This document shows, one piece after another, positions 1 through 13,145 of a DNA stretch of 13,145 nucleotides (positions are counted from its first letter, which is position 1; each line of letters starts with the position of its first letter). Origin of the DNA: Elusimicrobiota bacterium. GTDB lineage: Bacteria; Elusimicrobiota; Elusimicrobia; UBA1565. Location of the stretch: assembly GCA_043819795.1 (NCBI GenBank), contig JBDREN010000086.1:1-13145 (forward strand). The letters are read 5' to 3'. The position numbers and the translations under genes are program-made. A model generated the notes under the pieces. That model had not been told where the DNA came from. It ran no database searches and worked only from the letters and a program-made list of their open reading frames with translations.

Positions 1-3648
<3,648 letters not shown>

Positions 3649-3716
3649 GAGTAGCGCTAGCGGCGCCCGTCGTCCGGTCGAGGTCCGCCGGCGTTGAGCC
3701 TGCCGATGGGCTCGTT

Positions 3717-3753
3717 TAGGAGCGTGTCCAGGTCTTACTCGGACACGCTCCTA
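3717..3753. repeat. Perfect 13-bp inverted repeat between convergent genes (possible bidirectional terminator or REP-like element)
   Basis: TAGGAGCGTGTCC (3717-3729), an 11-nt loop, then GGACACGCTCCTA (3741-3753). There is no strong U-tract on either strand. Confidence 0.7.
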
Positions 3754-5133
3754 GAGTCCGGTCAGCGCGATCCGGCTCAGCCCCGAGCGCGTGCCGACCC
3801 AGAGCGAGTCTCCGTCGAACGCGACCGCGCTCACGTCGTCGCCCGCGAGGCCGTCCTTCTTCCCGAGGGAGCGCCACCGGCCTTTCCACAAGAGCTTCAG
3901 ACCCTCCTCCATCCCGCCGACGGCGACCGTCGTCCCGCGGACCGCGATCGCGCCGGCGTTCACCCAGACCCGCGGCAATAGGGGGCGGACGCCGCCCTTT
4001 CCGCGATCGAGCAGTAATACCCCGCCGTCATAGGTCCCGGCGATGACGCCCTCGGGGTGCGGGGCCAGGGCCGTCACCCAATCGACGGGGATGGAGCCCT
4101 CCAGGCTCCGGAAGTGGGACCAACGCTTCCCGTCGTGACGATAGACTCCGGCCAGGCCCGCGACCCAGAGGGCCTTGGCGTCCACGTGGAGGTCCTGCGG
4201 ATGCTCCTCGGGGATGGGGATCGTCCGGACCTCGCCGTCTTCGAAGACAAGGATTGCGCCCTTTTGCGCGGCATAGACTTTGCCCCCGAACCCTGCCAGC
4301 GCCGAGGTCTTGTTTCGAAAGACCGTTCCCTCCGGGATCGCGACCCGCCCGTCCTCGATCCAGAAGAGCCCTTTGTGACCGGCGCCCCACAGACGTCCGC
4401 CGTCGAAGTGGAGGTCGTCGACCCAGTCGGAAGGAAGTCCCTGCTCCGTGGTCCAGTGCCGCCAGCGTCCGTCCCGGAGCGCCGAGAGGCCTTTGTCGAA
4501 GGTTGCGACCCAGAGGGTGTCTTCGACCTTGAGGACCCGGGTGATGTTGTTGTCGGCCGGGCCCTCCCGGCGTATCCTGCGCCGTGCCAGGCCGTCGAAC
4601 ACGTAGAGCCCTTGGCGGGTCCCGACCAGGAGCAGCCTTGGGGTGGCGGCGAGGGCGGTGACCACGTCGGGGAAACCCGGCAGCCGCCGTCCGGGCGCCC
4701 GCAACTCGCGAAGGCCCCCGCCGAAAGTCCCGACCAGGAGGCGTCCCCGGAATACGGCCACCGAGGTCGCGGGGAAGCCGTGGACCGGATGAACGACGGA
4801 CCCCCGCCCGCAGCGCTTTTCGACCCCGCGCCGCTCGGGAGTATAGACGCACCCGGCGTGCTCCAGCGTCGGGGGTATTTTCCGGAGGGGGGCGTCGGCT
4901 CCGCGGATGCGGACCTTCTCGACGCGGTCCAGCCTCTCCGGCAGTTCGATCCGGTACGATGCCCCGGTCGTGCCGATGAGCGCCGAGTCTCCAAGGACCT
5001 CGATCGCCACGACGTCCTCGCTGTTGGCGTGGTTCTCTATGGGGAACGGCGCGGGGGGAGGCTCTCGAGGTCCTGCACAAAGCGCCGGCCCGGCGGCGAA
5101 GAGAAGGGCCGACCATGCCGCGGGGCCGGTCAC
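3751..5133 (-). CDS. Secreted beta-propeller repeat protein (two-component-regulator-propeller-like blades)
   Basis: 460-aa ORF with a signal-peptide-like N-terminus (MTGPAAWSALLFAAGPALCA). Repeated blades include LLVGTFGGGL, LWVATFDKGL, GLPSDWVDDL and DGLAGDDVSAVAFDGDSLWVGTRSGL. The GTG start overlaps the upstream TGA stop (GTGA, 5130-5133). Confidence 0.85.
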   Translation of the reverse strand: MTGPAAWSALLFAAGPALCAGPREPPPAPFPIENHANSEDVVAIEVLGDSALIGTTGASYRIELPERLDRVEKVRIRGADAPLRKIPPTLEHAGCVYTPERRGVEKRCGRGSVVHPVHGFPATSVAVFRGRLLVGTFGGGLRELRAPGRRLPGFPDVVTALAATPRLLLVGTRQGLYVFDGLARRRIRREGPADNNITRVLKVEDTLWVATFDKGLSALRDGRWRHWTTEQGLPSDWVDDLHFDGGRLWGAGHKGLFWIEDGRVAIPEGTVFRNKTSALAGFGGKVYAAQKGAILVFEDGEVRTIPIPEEHPQDLHVDAKALWVAGLAGVYRHDGKRWSHFRSLEGSIPVDWVTALAPHPEGVIAGTYDGGVLLLDRGKGGVRPLLPRVWVNAGAIAVRGTTVAVGGMEEGLKLLWKGRWRSLGKKDGLAGDDVSAVAFDGDSLWVGTRSGLSRIALTGL

Positions 5134-7652
5134 CGGAGGTCCGGGAGCCGGTGGCGGAATACCTGGTGGTGGATGTTTCCGGCGTAGTCGGTCGCCTCGA
5201 CCAGGAAACGGGTCTCCCCCGGCTCGAGGCCCTCGAGGTCCAGCACGCCCTTCCAGGTGAAAGAGCCCGGCGAACGGATCAGCTTCATCGGGATCACGCG
5301 GCCGTCCGGGGCGAGGATCCGGAGCCGCTTGACGTCGTGGAGCACCTCGATCGCTCCTCGGGGTCCCGAGCGCATCTCGAGGACGTCCTTCTTCGGCACG
5401 GCCGTGAAGACCAGCTTCGAGCCCTCGCGGGAGGCGCTCACCGTCAGGACCGGCGCTTTCGAATCGACCGTGTAGAAGGCGTTGAGCTCCCTGCGCGATC
5501 CGTCGGGCTGCACGGCGAGGACGCGGATCGGGTAGCGGCCGTCTTCCACGCGCCGCGGGACGAGGAACCGGCAGGTCCAGCGGCCCAGGTCCGGATCGAA
5601 CTTGAGGAGCTTCCGGAGCCCGAAATCGAACTCGGCGATGACCGCGGCGCTCTCTTCGGGCGCGTCCACGCTCAAAACGGGGTCCCCGGGCTTCATGCGC
5701 GGGATCGAGACCTGGGCCTCGGGGCCGAAGACTCCCTCGTGGCTGACGCCCTCGGGCATCTCGACCGGGATGAGCACCGAATCCAGAGGGAGCTTCGTGT
5801 CGGCGAGGATATTGCGCTCGACCGCGACAAAGGATGTGTACTTGCTCATCAGGTTGAAGCGCTTTGCGAGCTCGATGATCCGCTTCACGCGCTTCGGATC
5901 CTCGATATTGAGCATCGCGTCCATGTGCGCCTTGATCTGCTTGCGGGCCCAGAGGGCGCCCAAGGCCTTGTTCTCGCGCCTACCCTCGGGCAGGACCACG
6001 TCGAAGACCTTCTCGTAGGCCGCTTGGCCGGCGCTGCCGCGCAGCCTCACCTTGGCCGAGCCCGGCTTTCCGTAGCGGCCGAAGACGAACAGGGGCTGGT
6101 TCTCGAAGAGGTCGGGGAGGCGCCCCGGGTAGACGTCCGAGACGTCGAGCCCGCCCCAGTCGATCGCCAGGTCCATGAGCAGGGGGTTGCTGATCCGCCG
6201 GTAGAAGCGATCCACCGCTTCCAGCGTGTTCTCGTCGTTGCGCACGTATTGGACGAAGCCGTTGCCGGCCTCGGCCATGCCGTTAAGCAGGTAGCGGTTG
6301 ACCGAGGAGCCCACCCCGAAGGAGTAGAGCCGCGTGTCGCCGAGGCGCTCCTTGATGGCGGCGAGGATCTGGGCGTCGTTGCCGATGTAGCCGTCGGTCA
6401 TGAAGAATACCATCCGGCGGCGGTGGGGGTCCTTGGGAAAGTCGAGCGCGGCCCTGATCCCGGCGAGCATCTGGGTGCCGCCCATCCCGCGCATCCCGTT
6501 GACGTACGAGAGCCCCCGGCGCCGGTTGATGAACGTGTTGGGCAACGGCCCGCGGGAGAATTGCGAGGCGGCGTCGGAGAACTTGATGATCTGGAAGGAG
6601 TCGTACGGGTTCATCCCCATGATCAGCCGGCGCATGGCCTGCTTGGCCTTGGCGATCGGCTCTCCCGACATCGATCCCGAGTTGTCGACCACGAAGACGA
6701 GCTCCTTCGGAACGGGCTCGCTCGGCCGGACCTTGGCCTGGGGCTGGAGAAGCAGCATGAAATAGCCTTCTTTGCCGTCGCGGTGCGCGAGGACCGCCGG
6801 CTCCGCGCGCCCGGCGGAGAGACCGTACTGCAGGACGAAGTCCTTGTTGGGGATCCGGTCCGAAGGGCGGATCTGGACCTCGGCCACGCCGGAGCCCCGC
6901 TTCCGGATGTCGACGAGATGCGACTTGGACCGGAGGCCCTTGATAGGCAGGCCCGCGTCGATCCGGACGCGCAGGCTGATGTCGTGCCCGTTGCGCTCGC
7001 CCGGCGTCAGGACGTGGGGGGTGATCCGTGACGCGTCGGGCACGGCCGTCGTGTCCATGGACCAGCCGGAGCCCAAGTCCTGTCGCGAGAGCCGGAATCC
7101 CGGGATAAATCGCGGCCCGACGACCATAGGGAATACGAAGCGGTAGATGCCGTCGTCGTACTTGAGCTCATGCACGTAGCGAATCTTGACGAAGACCGTC
7201 TCCCCGGCCGGGATGTTCGCGAGCGACTGGGTGAAGATGTTGGCCCGTTCCTGCTCGAGGAGCGCGGCCGTCTTGCCTTCCTGCTTCGCTTTCTCGTAGA
7301 TCTTGCGCGCCTTCTCGCGCTCCTTGACCTTGCTGTAGACGACCCGGTCCCCGATGCGGAAGTACATGTCGCTCACGGCCGCGTTGTCCGGGAGGGGGAA
7401 GACGTACTCGGCCTCGATCCGGTTCTTGGCGGGATTGTGGAAGCGCTGCTCGACCTCAACGGCGGCGATGGCTCCGGTCACCTCGGTCGTGACGGAGGTG
7501 CGCTCGAGCACGAAGCGGCCGGCCGTCTTGCCCTGGCGGTCGACGATCCGCATCTCTCCCTGAAAGACCGCGTCGTCCAAGGGCGGGGGGGTCTGCGCCT
7601 CGCAGGCACCGGGAGCGAGCAATCCGAGCAGCACGATCAATACCTGACCCAT
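5130..7652 (-). CDS. Secreted VIT (vault protein inter-alpha-trypsin) and von Willebrand factor A domain protein with C-terminal beta-rich domains
   Basis: VIT motifs: VEVEQRFHNP, EAEYVFPLPDNAAV, ARKIYEKAKQEGKTAALLEQERANIFTQSLANI. The vWA MIDAS is intact: VFVVDNSGSM, GGT, FMTDG. The start is moved from 7790 to ATG 7652, which gives a signal peptide (MGQVLIVLLGLLAPGACEA) and 840 aa. Confidence 0.92.
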   Translation of the reverse strand: MGQVLIVLLGLLAPGACEAQTPPPLDDAVFQGEMRIVDRQGKTAGRFVLERTSVTTEVTGAIAAVEVEQRFHNPAKNRIEAEYVFPLPDNAAVSDMYFRIGDRVVYSKVKEREKARKIYEKAKQEGKTAALLEQERANIFTQSLANIPAGETVFVKIRYVHELKYDDGIYRFVFPMVVGPRFIPGFRLSRQDLGSGWSMDTTAVPDASRITPHVLTPGERNGHDISLRVRIDAGLPIKGLRSKSHLVDIRKRGSGVAEVQIRPSDRIPNKDFVLQYGLSAGRAEPAVLAHRDGKEGYFMLLLQPQAKVRPSEPVPKELVFVVDNSGSMSGEPIAKAKQAMRRLIMGMNPYDSFQIIKFSDAASQFSRGPLPNTFINRRRGLSYVNGMRGMGGTQMLAGIRAALDFPKDPHRRRMVFFMTDGYIGNDAQILAAIKERLGDTRLYSFGVGSSVNRYLLNGMAEAGNGFVQYVRNDENTLEAVDRFYRRISNPLLMDLAIDWGGLDVSDVYPGRLPDLFENQPLFVFGRYGKPGSAKVRLRGSAGQAAYEKVFDVVLPEGRRENKALGALWARKQIKAHMDAMLNIEDPKRVKRIIELAKRFNLMSKYTSFVAVERNILADTKLPLDSVLIPVEMPEGVSHEGVFGPEAQVSIPRMKPGDPVLSVDAPEESAAVIAEFDFGLRKLLKFDPDLGRWTCRFLVPRRVEDGRYPIRVLAVQPDGSRRELNAFYTVDSKAPVLTVSASREGSKLVFTAVPKKDVLEMRSGPRGAIEVLHDVKRLRILAPDGRVIPMKLIRSPGSFTWKGVLDLEGLEPGETRFLVEATDYAGNIHHQVFRHRLPDLR

Positions 7653-7660
7653 GGGCGCAA

Positions 7661-7687
7661 TACGAGCGGGGCGGGGCGAGTATTTCA
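7661..7687 (-). promoter_or_regulatory. Candidate ECF-sigma-type promoter for the VIT-vWA operon
   Basis: The minus strand reads TGAAAT-N17-CGTA, ending 8 nt before ATG 7652. This resembles the SigW-type TGAAAC...CGTA consensus. No Shine-Dalgarno is visible. Confidence 0.35.
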
Positions 7688-7866
7688 GGGTGCGGGGCGA
7701 CACGCCGGGGCCGAGGCCGCGACCGGCCCGGTTGATGAAGGGAAACAAAGGCGAAGCCGCCCTTCCTTCACGGGGCTTGCGGGGGCCCAAACGCGATGGG
7801 ACTGTTCATGTCAAGGACGTTCCGGAGTGCCTTTTTTTGGGGTAATGTACTATTGTAACTGCTCCG

Positions 7867-10092
7867 ATGCTCCCTTTCTTGACGTTCCTCGTCCTGCTGT
7901 TTCAGGTCGGCCAAAGCCGGTTATACGGATACGTCCTCTTTCACCACTTCACGCCCGCGGCTATTTCTCTGGCTTTGCTGGGCTTGGGCTTGGGGGCTTT
8001 CCTGCGTCTAGGCGTTCTGAAGACGTTCGGCCCTGAGCGGCTCCGCGTCTACGGCCTCTCGGCGCTCTCCGCGTGCTTTATGCTTGTGTATGCCGCCCTG
8101 TTTGCCGCCGGTTCCGTTTGGGTCCTGTTGGCGGCTTCCCTTCTCCCTTTTTTGATGCTCGGGGTACTCGTTTCCCAATGCTACGCATCCTCGGCGTCGA
8201 ACGATCCGTATAAGACTTACTTCATGGATCTGATGGGGGGCGCGGGGGCATGCCTTTGCGCGATTCCCGCGATCAACCTCTTGGGTGGGGTCGGCCTGAA
8301 TCTGGTCTTGGCGCTCCTCGCCTCCACTGCGGCCTGCGTGCGGAGCTATGCCTTGAGAGGAAGACGCCCGAAGTTTTTCTCCCGGGCCGTTTTGTGCCTG
8401 GCGGTGATCATGACGGGACTGTGGTCGGCGTCGCTTCTGCCGGATCCTTGGGAGACCGCTTCCCCGCCGGGTCGAAAGCCCCTGCATGAAAGCGCGCGGA
8501 GGGAAAAGGGCCGGATACTGGATCACGCGTGGAGCGTGTCGGGGCGGGCCGACCTCTACGCTCACCCCGACTACGCCAATATCCGCTGGATCTACAACGA
8601 CGCCACGAACTCGTCCTACCTGGTCCGCGAGCCCAGGACGGAGTCGCAGAAGAATATCCTCAAGGCCATGACCCCGTATGCCCCGTTCGACTTCTTCCGC
8701 CCGAAAGACGTCCTCCTCATCGGGCCCGGCGGCGGGTTAGAGGTGCACTTGGCGCGGTTGGGCGGGGCGGAGCGTATCCAGGCGGTGGAGCTCAATCCCG
8801 CGATCATAGAACTGGTGCGTCGCTCGAAGGATTTCGCCGGCGACGTGTATGACCAACCGGGAGTGGCGCTGACGGTCGGAGAGGGGCGTCGCTTCTTGAT
8901 GACGCATCCCCAGCTCTACGACTTGATTCAAATGTCGCTGGTTCTGACGGCGACGCCTCAAAGCGGGACCTTCGCGCTGGCGGAAGGATACCTCTATACC
9001 CGGGAAGCCCATCGCTTGTATTTGAACCGTCTTCGGCCCGGCGGTTTTTTATCCATAATCGACGATCACGGCACGCGGAATTTCCGCCAGCTTATCACCT
9101 CGTTGTCTGTATTGGAAGAAGGCGGTCGAGGGACGGGCGCGGCGATGCGTCATGCTGCGGTCATCGAGAATACAAGAAAGGACGGGATGGGCTACCGCCA
9201 TCTTCTCCTCATTTCTCCTACTCCCATTTCCGAGGCGTCCGCCGAGCGGATACTCACCTTGTCTCGGAGCCGCGGCCTGACGCCTTTGTGGGTGCCGGGA
9301 CGCGTCGCGCGGGCGCCGTTTGATGCCTTAGCGAGGATGGGACGTATGGCGTTTCTCGCCGCCCATCCCCTGGAACTTAGCCCGCCGACCGACGAACATC
9401 CGTTTTTCTTTTACTTCGGCAAAGGCGCGCGCGGGTATTTTTCGGTGGTGCGGACGCTCGGCGTCGTTGCCTTGCTCTCGGCGTTTTTGGCCGCCCTATT
9501 CGCTCGGCGGCACAAGAGAGCGCTGGGCGCCCAGTCGTGGCGGCCTCTTCTGGCGGCGTTTCTCTTGGGCGCGGCCTTTATGTGCCTGGAGGGGGGCTTG
9601 CTGCAGCGTCTTACGCTCGCGGCGGGCGGCCCGACCGAGATTTTCGCGATCCTCCTGTTCTCTCTTTTGTTCTGGTGTGGGCTCGGCAGCCGCTTGGCTT
9701 GCGTGCTCGGCCGGCGGTTCTCTTTCGGATTGCCGGAAGCTTGCGTAGGGGCGATGCTGGCCGCTCTGGCCGCTTATTTCGTCCTGGGCGAGTATTATAC
9801 GTTCACGGGGGCGCGGTCTCCATTATTCTTGCGCGCGGGGATATTCTTCTCATTGGCTCCGGTCGGTCTCATCTTGGGAGGGCCGTTTCCCTTTCTCCTC
9901 GCGCGTTACGTCCGCGGGGACGAGAAAGCGGCCGCGGTCTTGTGGGGGGTAAACGGCTTGGCGTCGGTGTGCGGCGCTATGCTTACGATCGCTTTACCGG
10001 TGGCATGGGGGGTGCGTGCCAATTTCCTGGCGGGCGGGCTTCTGTATGGAGCGGCGGCGTGGATCACGCGCGGGGGGGAGAAGGGGCCATGA
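7867..10092 (+). CDS. Polytopic membrane protein with a central spermidine-synthase-like class I SAM-binding domain
   Basis: 741 aa with hydrophobic multi-helix N- and C-terminal regions (including YFMDLMGGAGAC and LWGVNGLASVCG). Central motifs: VLLIGPGGGLEV, AVELNP, GEGRRFL, YDLIQMSL, EGYLYTREA, LRPGG. Confidence 0.88.
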   Translation: MLPFLTFLVLLFQVGQSRLYGYVLFHHFTPAAISLALLGLGLGAFLRLGVLKTFGPERLRVYGLSALSACFMLVYAALFAAGSVWVLLAASLLPFLMLGVLVSQCYASSASNDPYKTYFMDLMGGAGACLCAIPAINLLGGVGLNLVLALLASTAACVRSYALRGRRPKFFSRAVLCLAVIMTGLWSASLLPDPWETASPPGRKPLHESARREKGRILDHAWSVSGRADLYAHPDYANIRWIYNDATNSSYLVREPRTESQKNILKAMTPYAPFDFFRPKDVLLIGPGGGLEVHLARLGGAERIQAVELNPAIIELVRRSKDFAGDVYDQPGVALTVGEGRRFLMTHPQLYDLIQMSLVLTATPQSGTFALAEGYLYTREAHRLYLNRLRPGGFLSIIDDHGTRNFRQLITSLSVLEEGGRGTGAAMRHAAVIENTRKDGMGYRHLLLISPTPISEASAERILTLSRSRGLTPLWVPGRVARAPFDALARMGRMAFLAAHPLELSPPTDEHPFFFYFGKGARGYFSVVRTLGVVALLSAFLAALFARRHKRALGAQSWRPLLAAFLLGAAFMCLEGGLLQRLTLAAGGPTEIFAILLFSLLFWCGLGSRLACVLGRRFSFGLPEACVGAMLAALAAYFVLGEYYTFTGARSPLFLRAGIFFSLAPVGLILGGPFPFLLARYVRGDEKAAAVLWGVNGLASVCGAMLTIALPVAWGVRANFLAGGLLYGAAAWITRGGEKGP

Positions 10093-10208
10093 TCCGGTCA
10101 CGCGGGGATATCCCGATCATCCCCGGTCTCGAAGACTTCCTCTTGTCCCTGGCGCGGTTTTCGCGTTCGATGTCCTTTCCCTAGGGGAAAATCAACCGCA
10201 AACGAGGA

Positions 10209-10244
10209 CAAAAGAAGACGCCAGCCCTCCCGGGCCAGCGTCTT
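10209..10244 (-). terminator. Intrinsic terminator downstream of the tRNA-Tyr locus
   Basis: The minus strand reads AAGACGCTGGCCC-GGGA-GGGCTGGCGTCTT followed by CTTTTG: a 13-bp stem with 2 G-U pairs and a GNRA loop. Confidence 0.8.
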
Positions 10245-10251
10245 TCCCAAA

Positions 10252-10305
10252 TGGTGGTGGGGATAGCACCGATCCAATAAGTCAGAGGACCGGCACTATC
10301 CCCAC
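10252..10305 (-). other. Duplicated tRNA-Tyr 3' end carrying CCA, forming a 19-bp hairpin (att-like remnant or tRNA-like minihelix)
   Basis: The minus strand reads GTGGGGATAGTGCCGGTCC-TCTGACTTATT-GGATCGGTGCTATCCCCAC-CACCA. CTATCCCCACCA at 10255-10266 is identical to 10322-10333. Confidence 0.75.
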
Positions 10306-10308
10306 GGT

Positions 10309-11493
10309 TCAGGAGAACGTATGGTGGGGATAGGATTCGAACCTATGTAGGGCGTAGCCCGCTGGTTTTACAGACCAGTGCATTTGACCGCTCTGCCACC
10401 CCACCTTTCTTTGTTTTTCAGCGAAATTCGGGATTTCGAAAGGTGGTCGATTTCGCTGTGTAGCACTAGTGTAGCACTTTTCCGACTCCAGGAGCTGGAT
10501 CGCGGCCAGCTTATGGCTCGGAGACAGGTGCGAGTACCGCTCCGTCATCCGGGTCGTGGAGTGCCCCAGCAACTCTGCTACGGTTTTCAAATCGGCACCC
10601 TTCATGATCAACTCGCTGGCGAAGGTGTGCCGGAGATCGTGAAACCGGAAGTCTCTGATTCCGGCCCGCTCAACGGCCGCCTCGAACTGGCTCCTGAGGC
10701 CGCCGAACCTGGAGAGCTTCCTGCCTTGCGCGTCGCAGAAGATGTGCTCTCCCTTCCGGACCATCCCGTTGAGCGTATCCTGCACGTCAGGATGAATCGG
10801 GATGTGGCGTATTCTACCAGATTTCGTCTTGCGGAGCGTAATCTGGTGGGCCACCGCGTCGATGTCCGTCCACTTGAGGTCCTGGATTTCGCCTTTCCTC
10901 ATGCCGGTCTTAAGCGCGAAGAGGACCACGCGCCGGAGCTCCGGCCCGCACACGGCGAGGAGCCGCTTCTTCTCGTCCGGGCTCAGGTAGCGGGTCCGGC
11001 CGCGGTCCTTCTCGCTGAAGAACCGGACGCGGCGCACGGGGTTGTCGAGCACGAGGCCCCATTCCATGCCCTTGTTGAAGGCGGTCTTGAGCACCGCGAG
11101 CTCGCGGTTGACGCGCGCGCCGGTGATCGGCCGTCCTTTCCTAAGGGTCTGCCTCCGGTGGGCCTTGTACTGCTCGATCCGGTGCGGGTTCAGCTCCGAG
11201 ACCAGGCAGTCCCCGAAGAAGTCAAGCATGGTCCGAATCGCGATTGCGTCGCTGTCGAAGGAGGACTTGTTGGTCCTGGCGTAGTCCTTCATGTAGGTCT
11301 CGAGGAGGTCCTTCAAAGGAAGCCGCGTCTGGCGGTCCAGGGCCTTGCCCGAGGCGTAATCGCTTCTGCGCTTGAAGTAGACTTCCTTGGCCTGCCTGCG
11401 GTCGGTGACGCCGGTCGATTCCTGGAATCGCTTACCGTTAAGCTTGAACGAGTACCACCAGAAGGGGCTGTTGGGGCGCTTATAAAGTCCCAT
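10309..11493 (-). CDS. int: Tyrosine recombinase / phage-type integrase whose C-terminal tail overlaps tRNA-Tyr
   Basis: N-terminal arm-binding-like segment (GLYKRPNSPFWWYSFKLNGKRFQESTG). Complete catalytic set: R (TGMRKGEI), K (KTKSG), HxxR (FHDLRHTFAS), H (LGHS), Y (RYSH). GGAGG RBS before ATG 11493. The first in-frame stop is TGA at 10309-10311. Confidence 0.96.
   Translation of the reverse strand: MGLYKRPNSPFWWYSFKLNGKRFQESTGVTDRRQAKEVYFKRRSDYASGKALDRQTRLPLKDLLETYMKDYARTNKSSFDSDAIAIRTMLDFFGDCLVSELNPHRIEQYKAHRRQTLRKGRPITGARVNRELAVLKTAFNKGMEWGLVLDNPVRRVRFFSEKDRGRTRYLSPDEKKRLLAVCGPELRRVVLFALKTGMRKGEIQDLKWTDIDAVAHQITLRKTKSGRIRHIPIHPDVQDTLNGMVRKGEHIFCDAQGRKLSRFGGLRSQFEAAVERAGIRDFRFHDLRHTFASELIMKGADLKTVAELLGHSTTRMTERYSHLSPSHKLAAIQLLESEKCYTSATQRNRPPFEIPNFAEKQRKVGWQSGQMHWSVKPAGYALHRFESYPHHTFS
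10322..10405 (-). tRNA. tRNA-Tyr(GTA), CCA not encoded
   Basis: GGTGGGGTGGCAGAGCGGTCAAATGCACTGGTCTGTAAAACCAGCGGGCTACGCCCTACATAGGTTCGAATCCTATCCCCACCA. Acceptor stem GGTGGGG/CCCCACC with discriminator A. Anticodon arm CTGGT-CTGTAAA-ACCAG. Long variable arm GGGC-TAC-GCCC. T arm ATAGG-TTCGAAT-CCTAT. Confidence 0.97.
10458..10478. repeat. Tandem 10-bp direct repeat, candidate integrase arm-type binding sites
   Basis: GTGTAGCACT at 10458-10467 and 10469-10478, with 11-bp periodicity, about 50 bp from the tRNA 5' end. Confidence 0.65.
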
Positions 11494-11511
11494 GGGCGGA
11501 CCTCCATTCTA

Positions 11512-11871
11512 TCATTTGCTTTGTTGCCGCCGCAGCGGCGTAATGGCCCGGCGCTTCATCCACTTGTCGATCTCCTGGACATCGAAGCGGACCAGGTTCT
11601 TTCCGCCCTCCCCGGCTTCTTCGATGCTCAGCGGGATGAAGGGTATGCTCCGGCGCTGGACCAGCTTGTAGAGCGACCACCGGGACACGCCCAGGTAGCC
11701 GGCCAGCTCCTGGATCGTGAGGTAGCGCTTGTCCGGAGAGGGCGGCGGGGGCTTCTCCCGCCCCGATACCCATTGCACGGTATCCCATTCGTCCTGGATC
11801 TCCTGCGGGACGATGAACCCGGCGAACTTGCTCTGAATCCTAGAATCGTGGTACGGGATTTCTGGCGTCAT
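11512..11871 (-). CDS. Excisionase-like helix-turn-helix protein (HTH_17/MerR-like), probable recombination directionality factor
   Basis: RYLTIQELAGYLGVSRWSLYKLVQRRSIP...VRFDVQEIDKWM. ATG 11871 is preceded by AAGGAGG and is preferred over 11892. It lies directly upstream of int. Confidence 0.88.
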   Translation of the reverse strand: MTPEIPYHDSRIQSKFAGFIVPQEIQDEWDTVQWVSGREKPPPPSPDKRYLTIQELAGYLGVSRWSLYKLVQRRSIPFIPLSIEEAGEGGKNLVRFDVQEIDKWMKRRAITPLRRQQSK

Positions 11872-13045
11872 AGGCCTCCTTCCAATCTTCAACGACCAAT
11901 CTGGTGGCGACCGTGAGAATGACCCATATGGGCATGAGCGCGAGGTTCTTCACCACGTAGTCGGTCATTACCTTGGCGCGGGCGACGGCCCGGGTCCCGT
12001 TCTTGGACTGGCCCCGGACCGACCAGTCCGTATAGCCCCATGTGGCCAGCATGATGAGGCCGCCCGCGGCCATGGCGAAGAGGGTCTCGGCCGCGCGGCT
12101 CACACCCCTGCGCCACCAAAAGCGGCGGCGGAAGAGCCCCCGCCTGCGCGGGCGGCGGTAGGGATCCCAGAGGGGCGTTCTACGAGGCTCTTGCCGGACC
12201 GGCTCGGGCGCGGTCGGCTCCACCGGAGCGGGTGGGGGGTGCTCCGGTGGAGCGGGCTCCGGCGTGGGCTCCGGAGGGGGGAGCGGCTTGGCCCTGGGCG
12301 GCCACTCCAGGGAGTCCGGGGCGATGCTGTACGCGGTCCCTTGGGCGTCCTCCAGGGTCCAGGCGTGGCCGCTTTGCAGGGCGTCCTCGAGCCCGATGAA
12401 GAAATGCCGGGGCCCATCCCCGGGACCAGAGTCCGCCTCGCGGGCCAGGGCGTTCCGGATGCCCCGGCTGCCGCAGACCCACCAGACATGCATAAGGTCG
12501 TCGCGCTCCCGGAGTTTCCGGAAGGATTCCTCGAGCTTGTCGCTGTTCTTGAGGGTGAGCTCGACCTCCAGCCCGACCTGCGCGGACACGCCGCGGAGGT
12601 TGTTGGTGAACCGGAATTCGGCGTCGCAGACCTTCGTGCCGTACCAGCCGCGCCGTTCCCAGAGGGGCTTTTCGGTCACGTACCAGCTGACCATGGGATG
12701 CTCCTCCAGGACCAGCCCGAGCCGCGCGCAGGCCAGCCGATGCTGGAAGATGTGCGGCCGGAAATCCTCCGGCTTGAAGCGGCCTGTGACCGGGAGCCGG
12801 CGCAGCCGGTCCAGGGTCCAGTAGCCCTCCGGGCTCAGGCAGAAGGCCTTGCCGGGACTGGTCCCGGTGCGGAAGTCGAGCGTCAGGCCGCGGGCCTTGA
12901 GCCGGTTGAGCACGCGGTAGGAGTGGGTCTGGTTGGTGAAGATGAGCTGCACTTCCGTGATGGTCAGGTAGTTGTACTCGGCCAGTTTGCTCATCAGCCG
13001 GAGCATCTTGTCGGTCAGTTTCTTCGGTCTCTTCTGTCTTCCCAA
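11840..13045 (-). CDS. Replication-relaxation-family-like protein (winged helix plus nuclease-like domain) with a Pro-rich linker and hydrophobic C-terminal tail
   Basis: LTDKMLRLMSKLAEYNYLTITEV...YRVLNRLKARGL...FCLSPEG; HIFQHRLACARL; CDAEF...VGLEVELTLKNSDKL; VWWVC. The likely start is TTG 13045, 5 nt after GGAGG; the GTG at 13051 lies inside the RBS. Confidence 0.75.
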   Translation of the reverse strand: MGRQKRPKKLTDKMLRLMSKLAEYNYLTITEVQLIFTNQTHSYRVLNRLKARGLTLDFRTGTSPGKAFCLSPEGYWTLDRLRRLPVTGRFKPEDFRPHIFQHRLACARLGLVLEEHPMVSWYVTEKPLWERRGWYGTKVCDAEFRFTNNLRGVSAQVGLEVELTLKNSDKLEESFRKLRERDDLMHVWWVCGSRGIRNALAREADSGPGDGPRHFFIGLEDALQSGHAWTLEDAQGTAYSIAPDSLEWPPRAKPLPPPEPTPEPAPPEHPPPAPVEPTAPEPVRQEPRRTPLWDPYRRPRRRGLFRRRFWWRRGVSRAAETLFAMAAGGLIMLATWGYTDWSVRGQSKNGTRAVARAKVMTDYVVKNLALMPIWVILTVATRLVVEDWKEAYDARNPVPRF

Positions 13046-13100
13046 TGTCACCTCCTTGTCTTATTTTCACCCCATCCATCAGCCCCGCTTCGATCCCTTG

Positions 13101-13126
13101 CTACGATACTCTCTAGAGTGTCGTAG
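13101..13126. promoter_or_regulatory. Imperfect 26-bp palindrome upstream of the rep/relax-xis-int operon (candidate operator or origin site)
   Basis: CTACGATACTCT-CT-AGAGTGTCGTAG: 12-bp arms with one mismatch. It includes TATCGT (TAnnnT) on the minus strand. Confidence 0.45.
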
Positions 13127-13145
13127 GGGGGGAGGGGGGGGGGGG

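Follow-up and report, generated by a model that had tools for sequence, protein, structure and literature searches.

The window, that is, the whole stretch of DNA that was analysed, is 13,145 nt long and corresponds to positions 1–13,145 of the forward strand of JBDREN010000086.1 (Elusimicrobiota bacterium, assembly GCA_043819795.1). It constitutes an entire contig, referred to here as G000:C86. A tyrosine integrase gene (int) on the minus strand points into a tRNA-Tyr gene of the same strand and runs through it. The features at the locus are as follows.

10215..10244, minus strand: hairpin followed by a U run, resembling an intrinsic terminator
10255..10321, minus strand: 67-nt unit behind the tRNA, made up of a 19-bp hairpin that closes with a duplicate of the tRNA 3' end and then CCA; it holds the int stop
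10309..11493, minus strand: tyrosine integrase ORF, 394 aa, with zero internal stops
10312..10479, minus strand: C-terminal extension of int, 56 codons covering arm sites, spacer and tRNA; not conserved
10322..10405, minus strand: complete tRNA-Tyr(GTA), 84 nt, called by ARAGORN and Rfam (63.7 bits); CCA not encoded
10367..10405, minus strand: tRNA-Tyr 5' half (nt 1–39), presumed from the fragment ends in relatives to be supplied by the element
10373–10367, minus strand: anticodon loop, putative 7-bp crossover region
10406..10457, minus strand: att spacer separating the arms from the tRNA; its DNA sequence is conserved
10458..10477, minus strand: two tandem arm-type sites, GTGCTACAC, with copies at 10477–10469 and 10466–10458
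10468..10476, minus strand: candidate extended −10, TGCTACACT, within arm copy 1 and 62 nt ahead of the tRNA
11512..11892, minus strand: excisionase-like HTH gene upstream of int (PF12728; TIGR01764 over its cut-off)
11840..13051, minus strand: replication-relaxation (MobC-like) gene of the element (NF041423, E 7.5e-8, under its cut-off; no Pfam match)

The Phage_integrase domain (PF00589) was found at residues 169–326 with 112.7 bits against a cut-off of 27.1, and the N-terminal and core-binding domains (PF24624, PF13102) also exceeded their curated cut-offs. In a profile search, the protein scored under every XerC, XerD and integron cut-off. The catalytic Tyr is residue 320, and the conserved fold extends to approximately residue 338, where similarity to homologues fades; this corresponds to about 10480, the position at which the first-pass annotation had ended the recognisable fold. 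That annotation had also described an ORF spanning the entire same-strand tRNA-Tyr, and both the open frame and the two tRNA calls confirmed it. The frame is open from about 10480 onwards and closes at the TGA at 10311–10309, 11 nt beyond the discriminator base as had been stated, although the tail comprises 56 codons and not the ~58 given earlier. The overlap of the int ORF with the tRNA-Tyr is genuine, yet it is not improbable. The contigs of one DNA run, a small share, fall short of the junction at 10480.

The window copy is the sole full tRNA-Tyr gene in the assembly, which is 90% complete. The att spacer contains a short inverted repeat (10458–10450 and 10427–10419). The contig breaks at 13145, 2.7 kb upstream. 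It ends (13080–13145) in a run of G ahead of the replication-relaxation gene, which probably caused the assembly break. At the other end of the window, 1–3648 on the plus strand hold a gene for a large Asp-rich protein whose 129-nt tandem repeats resemble thrombospondin type 3, and genes like it are found on many other contigs of the genome.

The element and its attachment site

The layout of the window is that of the reversed type of integrative element, in which the element carrying the integrase lies upstream of, and is co-oriented with, an intact tRNA gene. This reversed-orientation, or 5'-fragment, class of islands is already known: the Islander counts given in PMC4383910 include a 5' fragment in 159/3919 islands (4%), and a passage of PMC6563490, citing Zhao and Williams (2002), describes recombination on the tRNA 5' side as much rarer. 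Membership of this class, which the first-pass annotation had not recognised, would explain why int points into the 5' end of the tRNA. The window probably represents the integrase-proximal junction of an Elusimicrobiota reversed-orientation integrative element, at which the overlap with int is incidental. We infer its class membership, crossover and attP from relatives.

A copy of tRNA nt 1–39 followed by non-tRNA sequence was verified upstream of the full tRNA-Tyr gene in 11 of 40 relatives; among the matches listed for the same 40 relatives there were no tRNA-Tyr 3' fragments. At the level of the order, 101 genomes were searched and 92 gave a match, and displaced tRNA-Tyr 5' halves ending at nt 39–43 were verified in 22 of these 92. 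Double matches were excluded from the 5'-fragment count where they represented two full genes (G012, G296, G421), contig ends (G028, G441), a decayed gene (G016) or a match to the spacer (G305), and a phylum-wide search of 401 genomes was left out of the counts. Many cases share a direct repeat located ~100–130 nt past the 5' fragment and again 40–60 nt ahead of the full tRNA. This spacing is what arm-type sites flanking an anticodon-loop crossover would show.

Related elements share a 39-nt identity block and restore the tRNA at the junction. These elements carry one and the same repeat at either end, and the arm-like repeats noticed in the window at first pass are for this reason best read as arm-type att sites. 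The fragments in relatives also stop at the anticodon loop, so that recombination at the present locus would take place inside the tRNA and hence within the int ORF, in agreement with the earlier proposal. The element end in the genome G003, which belongs to the same family, is 81% identical to the window over the arms, the spacer and the 5' half, and the far end in G003, on another contig, includes a 5' fragment with the same arm repeat.

A fuzzy search of the window's own 90%-complete assembly for the tRNA-Tyr 5' half together with the arm repeat, intended to locate the far end, returned the window only. In G031:C3, which has a 60% identical integrase at tRNA-Tyr, no 5' fragment was found within 37 kb upstream with the window tRNA as query. 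A tRNA-Tyr 3' fragment in the window's own genome (C151:42629) was rejected as the far-end mate, since an upstream element calls for the other half of the tRNA and the arm repeat is not matched there.

Matched end pairs occur in the window's own genome at tRNA-Ser(GCT) (both on C151, 25.6 kb apart), tRNA-Thr(CGT) and tRNA-Ser(CGA), and the int-before-tRNA geometry recurs there at tRNA-Ser(GCT), Thr(CGT) and Thr(TGT). Among relatives, this geometry was present in 8 of the 19 loci scanned, the remaining 11 having the tRNA elsewhere or none. Judged by these loci, the integrase group as a whole shares this geometry. A crude sort of the tRNA fragment rows of the genome gave 11 of the 5' type, 9 of the 3' type and 7 others; the evidence for two of the 5' rows is weak, and some of the 3' rows are perhaps genes that were missed. 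Elements that replace the 5' half are seen at no fewer than five further tRNA genes in this genome and at a tRNA-Phe-like 5' half recognised by eye (contigs C151, C12/C100, C123/C235, C14/C140/C124, C133/C155 and C90), a level well in excess of the 4% in Islander.

The 5'-fragment islands of Islander share with the present locus a tyrosine integrase and an element upstream of an intact tRNA. On the evidence of relatives, they would also have in common with it a 5' fragment displaced to the far end and an anticodon-loop crossover (site A). They differ in two respects: the int ORF of the window crosses the att site, and the class is common here, with 22/92 order genomes at tRNA-Tyr alone. In this order of Elusimicrobiota, the 5'-half-replacing mode is common and affects many tRNAs (Tyr, Cys, Ser, Thr, Leu, Ala and others), compared with 4% of the islands in Islander, and essential single-copy tRNA genes therefore often lie behind element DNA. 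Literature searches on integrases, tRNA genes and genomic islands of Elusimicrobia returned nothing that was judged related.

Eight loci (L058–L065, in G022, G024, G018, G025, G039, G019, G020 and G017) contain elements of 1.4–7.8 kb that extend from a tRNA-Tyr 5' fragment to the full gene and have no match to the window integrase. Several have arm repeats at both ends, and their cargo, judged by eye from the ORFs, is AAA-ATPase or toxin-antitoxin-like. They look like non-autonomous cassettes, some in tandem. The integrases of L078–L088 are 60–63% identical to each other, have related arm repeats and insert at tRNA-Tyr, Cys and Ser(GCT), an indication that targets are often switched inside one integrase clade.

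Conservation and expected frequency of the read-through

The comparison with homologous integrases suggested at first pass showed that the read-through is not conserved. All of the 10 closest loci (60–63% identity; 3 at Tyr, 5 at Cys and 2 at Ser, including two near-duplicate pairs) stop 64–83 nt ahead of their tRNA. Two related pairs elsewhere, G027/G436 at tRNA-Tyr and C133/G022 at tRNA-Thr, share a read-in. In the window, 131 nt separate the catalytic Tyr from the tRNA, compared with 189–209 nt in the closest loci. The window keeps the spacing from the arms to the tRNA, and the linker before the arms is ~58 nt shorter. As a consequence of the shorter linker, the TAG between the arm repeats, which is the in-frame stop in 6/10 closest loci, is out of frame in the window. 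The tail past the catalytic Tyr is 74 aa in the window, 24–44 aa in the best 30 homologues and 40 aa as the median of 117.

This arrangement raises the question of an assembly slip, or of a very recent private frameshift by the arm repeats, in which case the true or ancestral gene would end at the arm-repeat TAG with ~342 aa. The neighbouring frame does close at this TAG, four codons after 10480 and at the stop used by the six loci mentioned above, and the junction lies beside a short A run that is one base longer in G003. A linker shortened by ~58 nt is, however, not a single-base error, and a sister clade reads its arm repeats in the frame of the window (L088, P0034, P0038, P0041, P0042 and P0046), a frame that natural genes thus do use, so that we regard a slip or private frameshift as very unlikely.

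A quick tree was built, after removal of the tails, from the top 64 rows with a length of 330 aa or more, and read-in labels were assigned partly by eye. In this tree, the window protein is the lone tRNA read-in of a 42-row clade (SH-aLRT 99), and 9 of the 22 rows in neighbouring clades read into the tRNA. The tree requires 8 changes to account for the 10 read-in rows, and 46 of 500 shuffles gave a number as low.

The rate expected by chance was estimated from the two parts of the path. The 25-codon spacer remained open in 26% of 5000 dinucleotide shuffles, and one of the three frames of the window tRNA-Tyr is open, which together give a chance of overlap of ~0.09 per element. Five of 20 int–tRNA junctions reach the tRNA, in frames 0, 1 and 2, compared with 2.9 expected (P = 0.14). 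L008 (catalytic end deleted), L082 (a duplicate of L081) and L002 (the same as L078) had been dropped before this test, and G436, G308 and G300, which were found later, stand outside it, with one of the three reaching the tRNA. At tRNA-Tyr itself, the int frame extends into the gene at 3/7 junctions; the window uses one frame, G027 and G436 use another, and G031, L081, G308 and G300 stop ahead of it. Sense tRNA-derived tails exceeding the shuffled maximum were found in 8 of 118 homologues, or in 17 when judged by eye. Four homologues (P0066, P0087, P0103 and P0118) cross a whole tRNA, and one further tail matches a tRNA in antisense. Full read-through is uncommon but recurrent.

In the pairs that share a read-in, the spacer has 52–59% amino-acid identity, and C133/G022 also show a 33-nt in-frame length difference. 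The pN/pS values, obtained from protein-guided alignments of 21–44 codons and near saturation, were 0.37 and 0.50 for read-in tails and 0.48 and 0.59 for early-stopping linkers.

Taken with the distribution among relatives, these rates suggest that the read-through most likely arose by accident and is incidental. The docking geometry, known but rare, packs int, arm sites, putative promoter and tRNA into ~130 nt, and coding overlap with the tRNA would thereby arise repeatedly by drift. For annotation, this serves as a warning that integrase tails of this kind are translated tRNA.

Predicted exchange of the integrase tail and possible processing of the message

We propose that attP would carry int and the arm sites, followed by the spacer and a tRNA-Tyr 5' half. 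A crossover at the anticodon loop would strand the host promoter and the host 5' half at the far end and would rebuild a full tRNA behind int; both outcomes are seen in relatives and predicted here. The linker, ~58 nt shorter than in the nearest kin, would have shifted the usual stop out of frame and placed the ORF in the only frame of tRNA-Tyr that is open. The resulting 56-residue tail would most likely be tolerated baggage, and a swap of ~19 residues on excision, as well as any non-stop mRNA arising from a cut by RNase P, would be side effects and not a selected switch.

Since the crossover is placed within the int ORF, excision should exchange approximately the last 19 residues of Int. With a crossover at nt 33–39, residues up to ~375 would be shared, and the last 19 would derive from the host half. 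When the window int was joined to 11 related far ends, 55–58 residues were shared and the tails then changed; the joined tails extend 65–152 aa past the catalytic Tyr in 10/11, and one remained open through the 300 nt read. The join to the far end of G003, used as a proxy, gave a tail of 67 aa, compared with 74 aa in the window. In the two cases for which both ends are available, the tail changes from 72 to 87 aa (G027) and from 72 to 85 aa (G436). Two homologues, P0063 and P0067, enter a tRNA 5' half before diverging, which is what would be expected of an attP or a tandem junction.

The first nucleotide of the tRNA, at which RNase P would cut, lies in codon 363 of int, and the genome has SmpB, tmRNA and RNase P RNA. 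A non-stop int mRNA produced by RNase P is possible; relatives that stop upstream of the tRNA evidently manage without one. A literature search on integrase mRNA, RNase P and non-stop decay found nothing.

The first-pass annotation had interpreted the overlap as an evolved control, either Mx8-like or based on RNase P and tmRNA: integration would add a tRNA-encoded tail, RNase P or 3' processing of the tRNA would cut the mRNA before its stop codon, and tmRNA tagging would keep Int low while the element is integrated. The position of the cut and the three components named above permit this, and tails do change both in the 11 joins and in the two real both-end cases. The read-in common to two related pairs and the 8/118 homologues with clear sense tails (17 by eye, four of them crossing a whole tRNA) also speak for it. 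The 9/22 rows of the neighbouring clades and the excess of 5/20 junctions over expectation count against an incidental overlap, as does the lack of a clear promoter near the tRNA, with which co-transcription from int would be possible. We nevertheless consider selected control unlikely, since the read-in is missing in 10/10 closest loci and in 41/42 clade rows. Elsewhere it is scattered on the tree and occurs in all three frames, the frames and stop points vary between cases, the rate is not significantly above chance, and pN/pS of the tails in read-in pairs is about equal to that of early-stopping linkers. Moreover, the excised form would have only half a tRNA and no substrate for RNase P, and the effect could exist without being selected.

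A related scenario, which seems to us quite unlikely, is that loss of the int stop in reversed-orientation elements yields a free switch kept by some lineages. A complete tRNA would be part of the int mRNA in the integrated form alone, and RNase P would cut this mRNA into a non-stop message for tagging by tmRNA; if the tRNA promoter lies in the arm site, binding of Int could also tune the sole tRNA-Tyr of the host. Int would then be damped after integration and at full strength in the excised circle. If the non-stop mechanism were real, it would represent a new way to sense the integrated state.

The incidental overlap that we favor can be compared with several known systems. In Myxococcus phage Mx8, attP lies inside int, integration alters the 3' end of int, and the change alters specificity and acts as a switch, according to the account in PMC6070905; the overlap of int with att in Mx8 and in SSV1-type archaeal integrases across attP is also mentioned in PMC4383910. 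The window resembles Mx8 in having, on the evidence of relatives, a crossover within the int ORF. It differs in that the overlap is not conserved in close relatives (0/10 loci and 0/41 other clade rows) and in that the predicted swap would touch only ~19 residues, far past the fold. Integration of the SSV1 type splits the catalytic gene into int(N) and int(C). The att site in the int gene and the tRNA target are common to that type and the window, whereas the window fold (residues 1–338) lies wholly upstream of the tRNA and stays intact.

In the integration-dependent immunity of mycobacteriophage BPs, as outlined in PMC4557955, the att site lies in the repressor ORF and an encoded ssrA-like tail governs proteolysis. 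An att site in an ORF that switches a C-terminal tail would be shared with the window, where it is predicted; in BPs, however, the ORF encodes a repressor with an ssrA-like tag, and Int of the window has no evident encoded tag. Phages showing tRNA-dependent lysogeny, as described in PMC10865867, have a short core, leave the tRNA unrestored and bring a complete tRNA gene of their own. A host tRNA supply that relies on element DNA would be common to both situations, but here, as indicated by relatives with their 39-nt identity block, a 5' half borne by the element would restore the tRNA at the junction.

Candidate promoter of the tRNA-Tyr and the unit downstream

A search for a −35/−10 pair ahead of the window tRNA-Tyr found none, and there is no clear promoter near the tRNA. 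Host-type tRNA-Tyr genes mostly have an extended −10-like motif 10–30 nt upstream, as judged by eye, and the window is without one at that position. The window tRNA-Tyr is probably transcribed from an element-borne promoter, for which our best candidate, a guess, is the extended −10 in arm copy 1. Equivalents of this motif are located 61 nt (G003) and 54 and 52 nt (both G024 ends) upstream of the tRNA, a result obtained in 1.65% of 2000 shuffles; the motif is absent at the G031, L081, G027 and G436 ends. If the −10 in the arm copy is the promoter, most of the tRNA-Tyr precursor would not come from the int message, and binding of Int could overlap the tRNA promoter. In the literature, nothing was found on an attP with a 5' half and a promoter, or on promoter replacement.

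Without the 67-nt unit behind the tRNA, the ORF would reach 442 aa, and the hairpin unit was unmatched at the tRNA-Tyr loci of 29 relatives, so that the position of the int stop also looks accidental. A similar 67-nt unit follows a tRNA-Tyr 3' fragment at G000:C151:42686–42752, and the unit is possibly a miniature element that sits at the 3' ends of tRNA-Tyr genes. A contig of DNA run X1 gives signs of one more tandem copy. The genome also holds two decayed fragments from the 3' side of tRNA-Tyr (G000:C151:42629–42721 and 44661–44697), which suggests that conventional 3'-type elements also used tRNA-Tyr. The window tRNA-Tyr may be a chimera formed from two element-borne halves.
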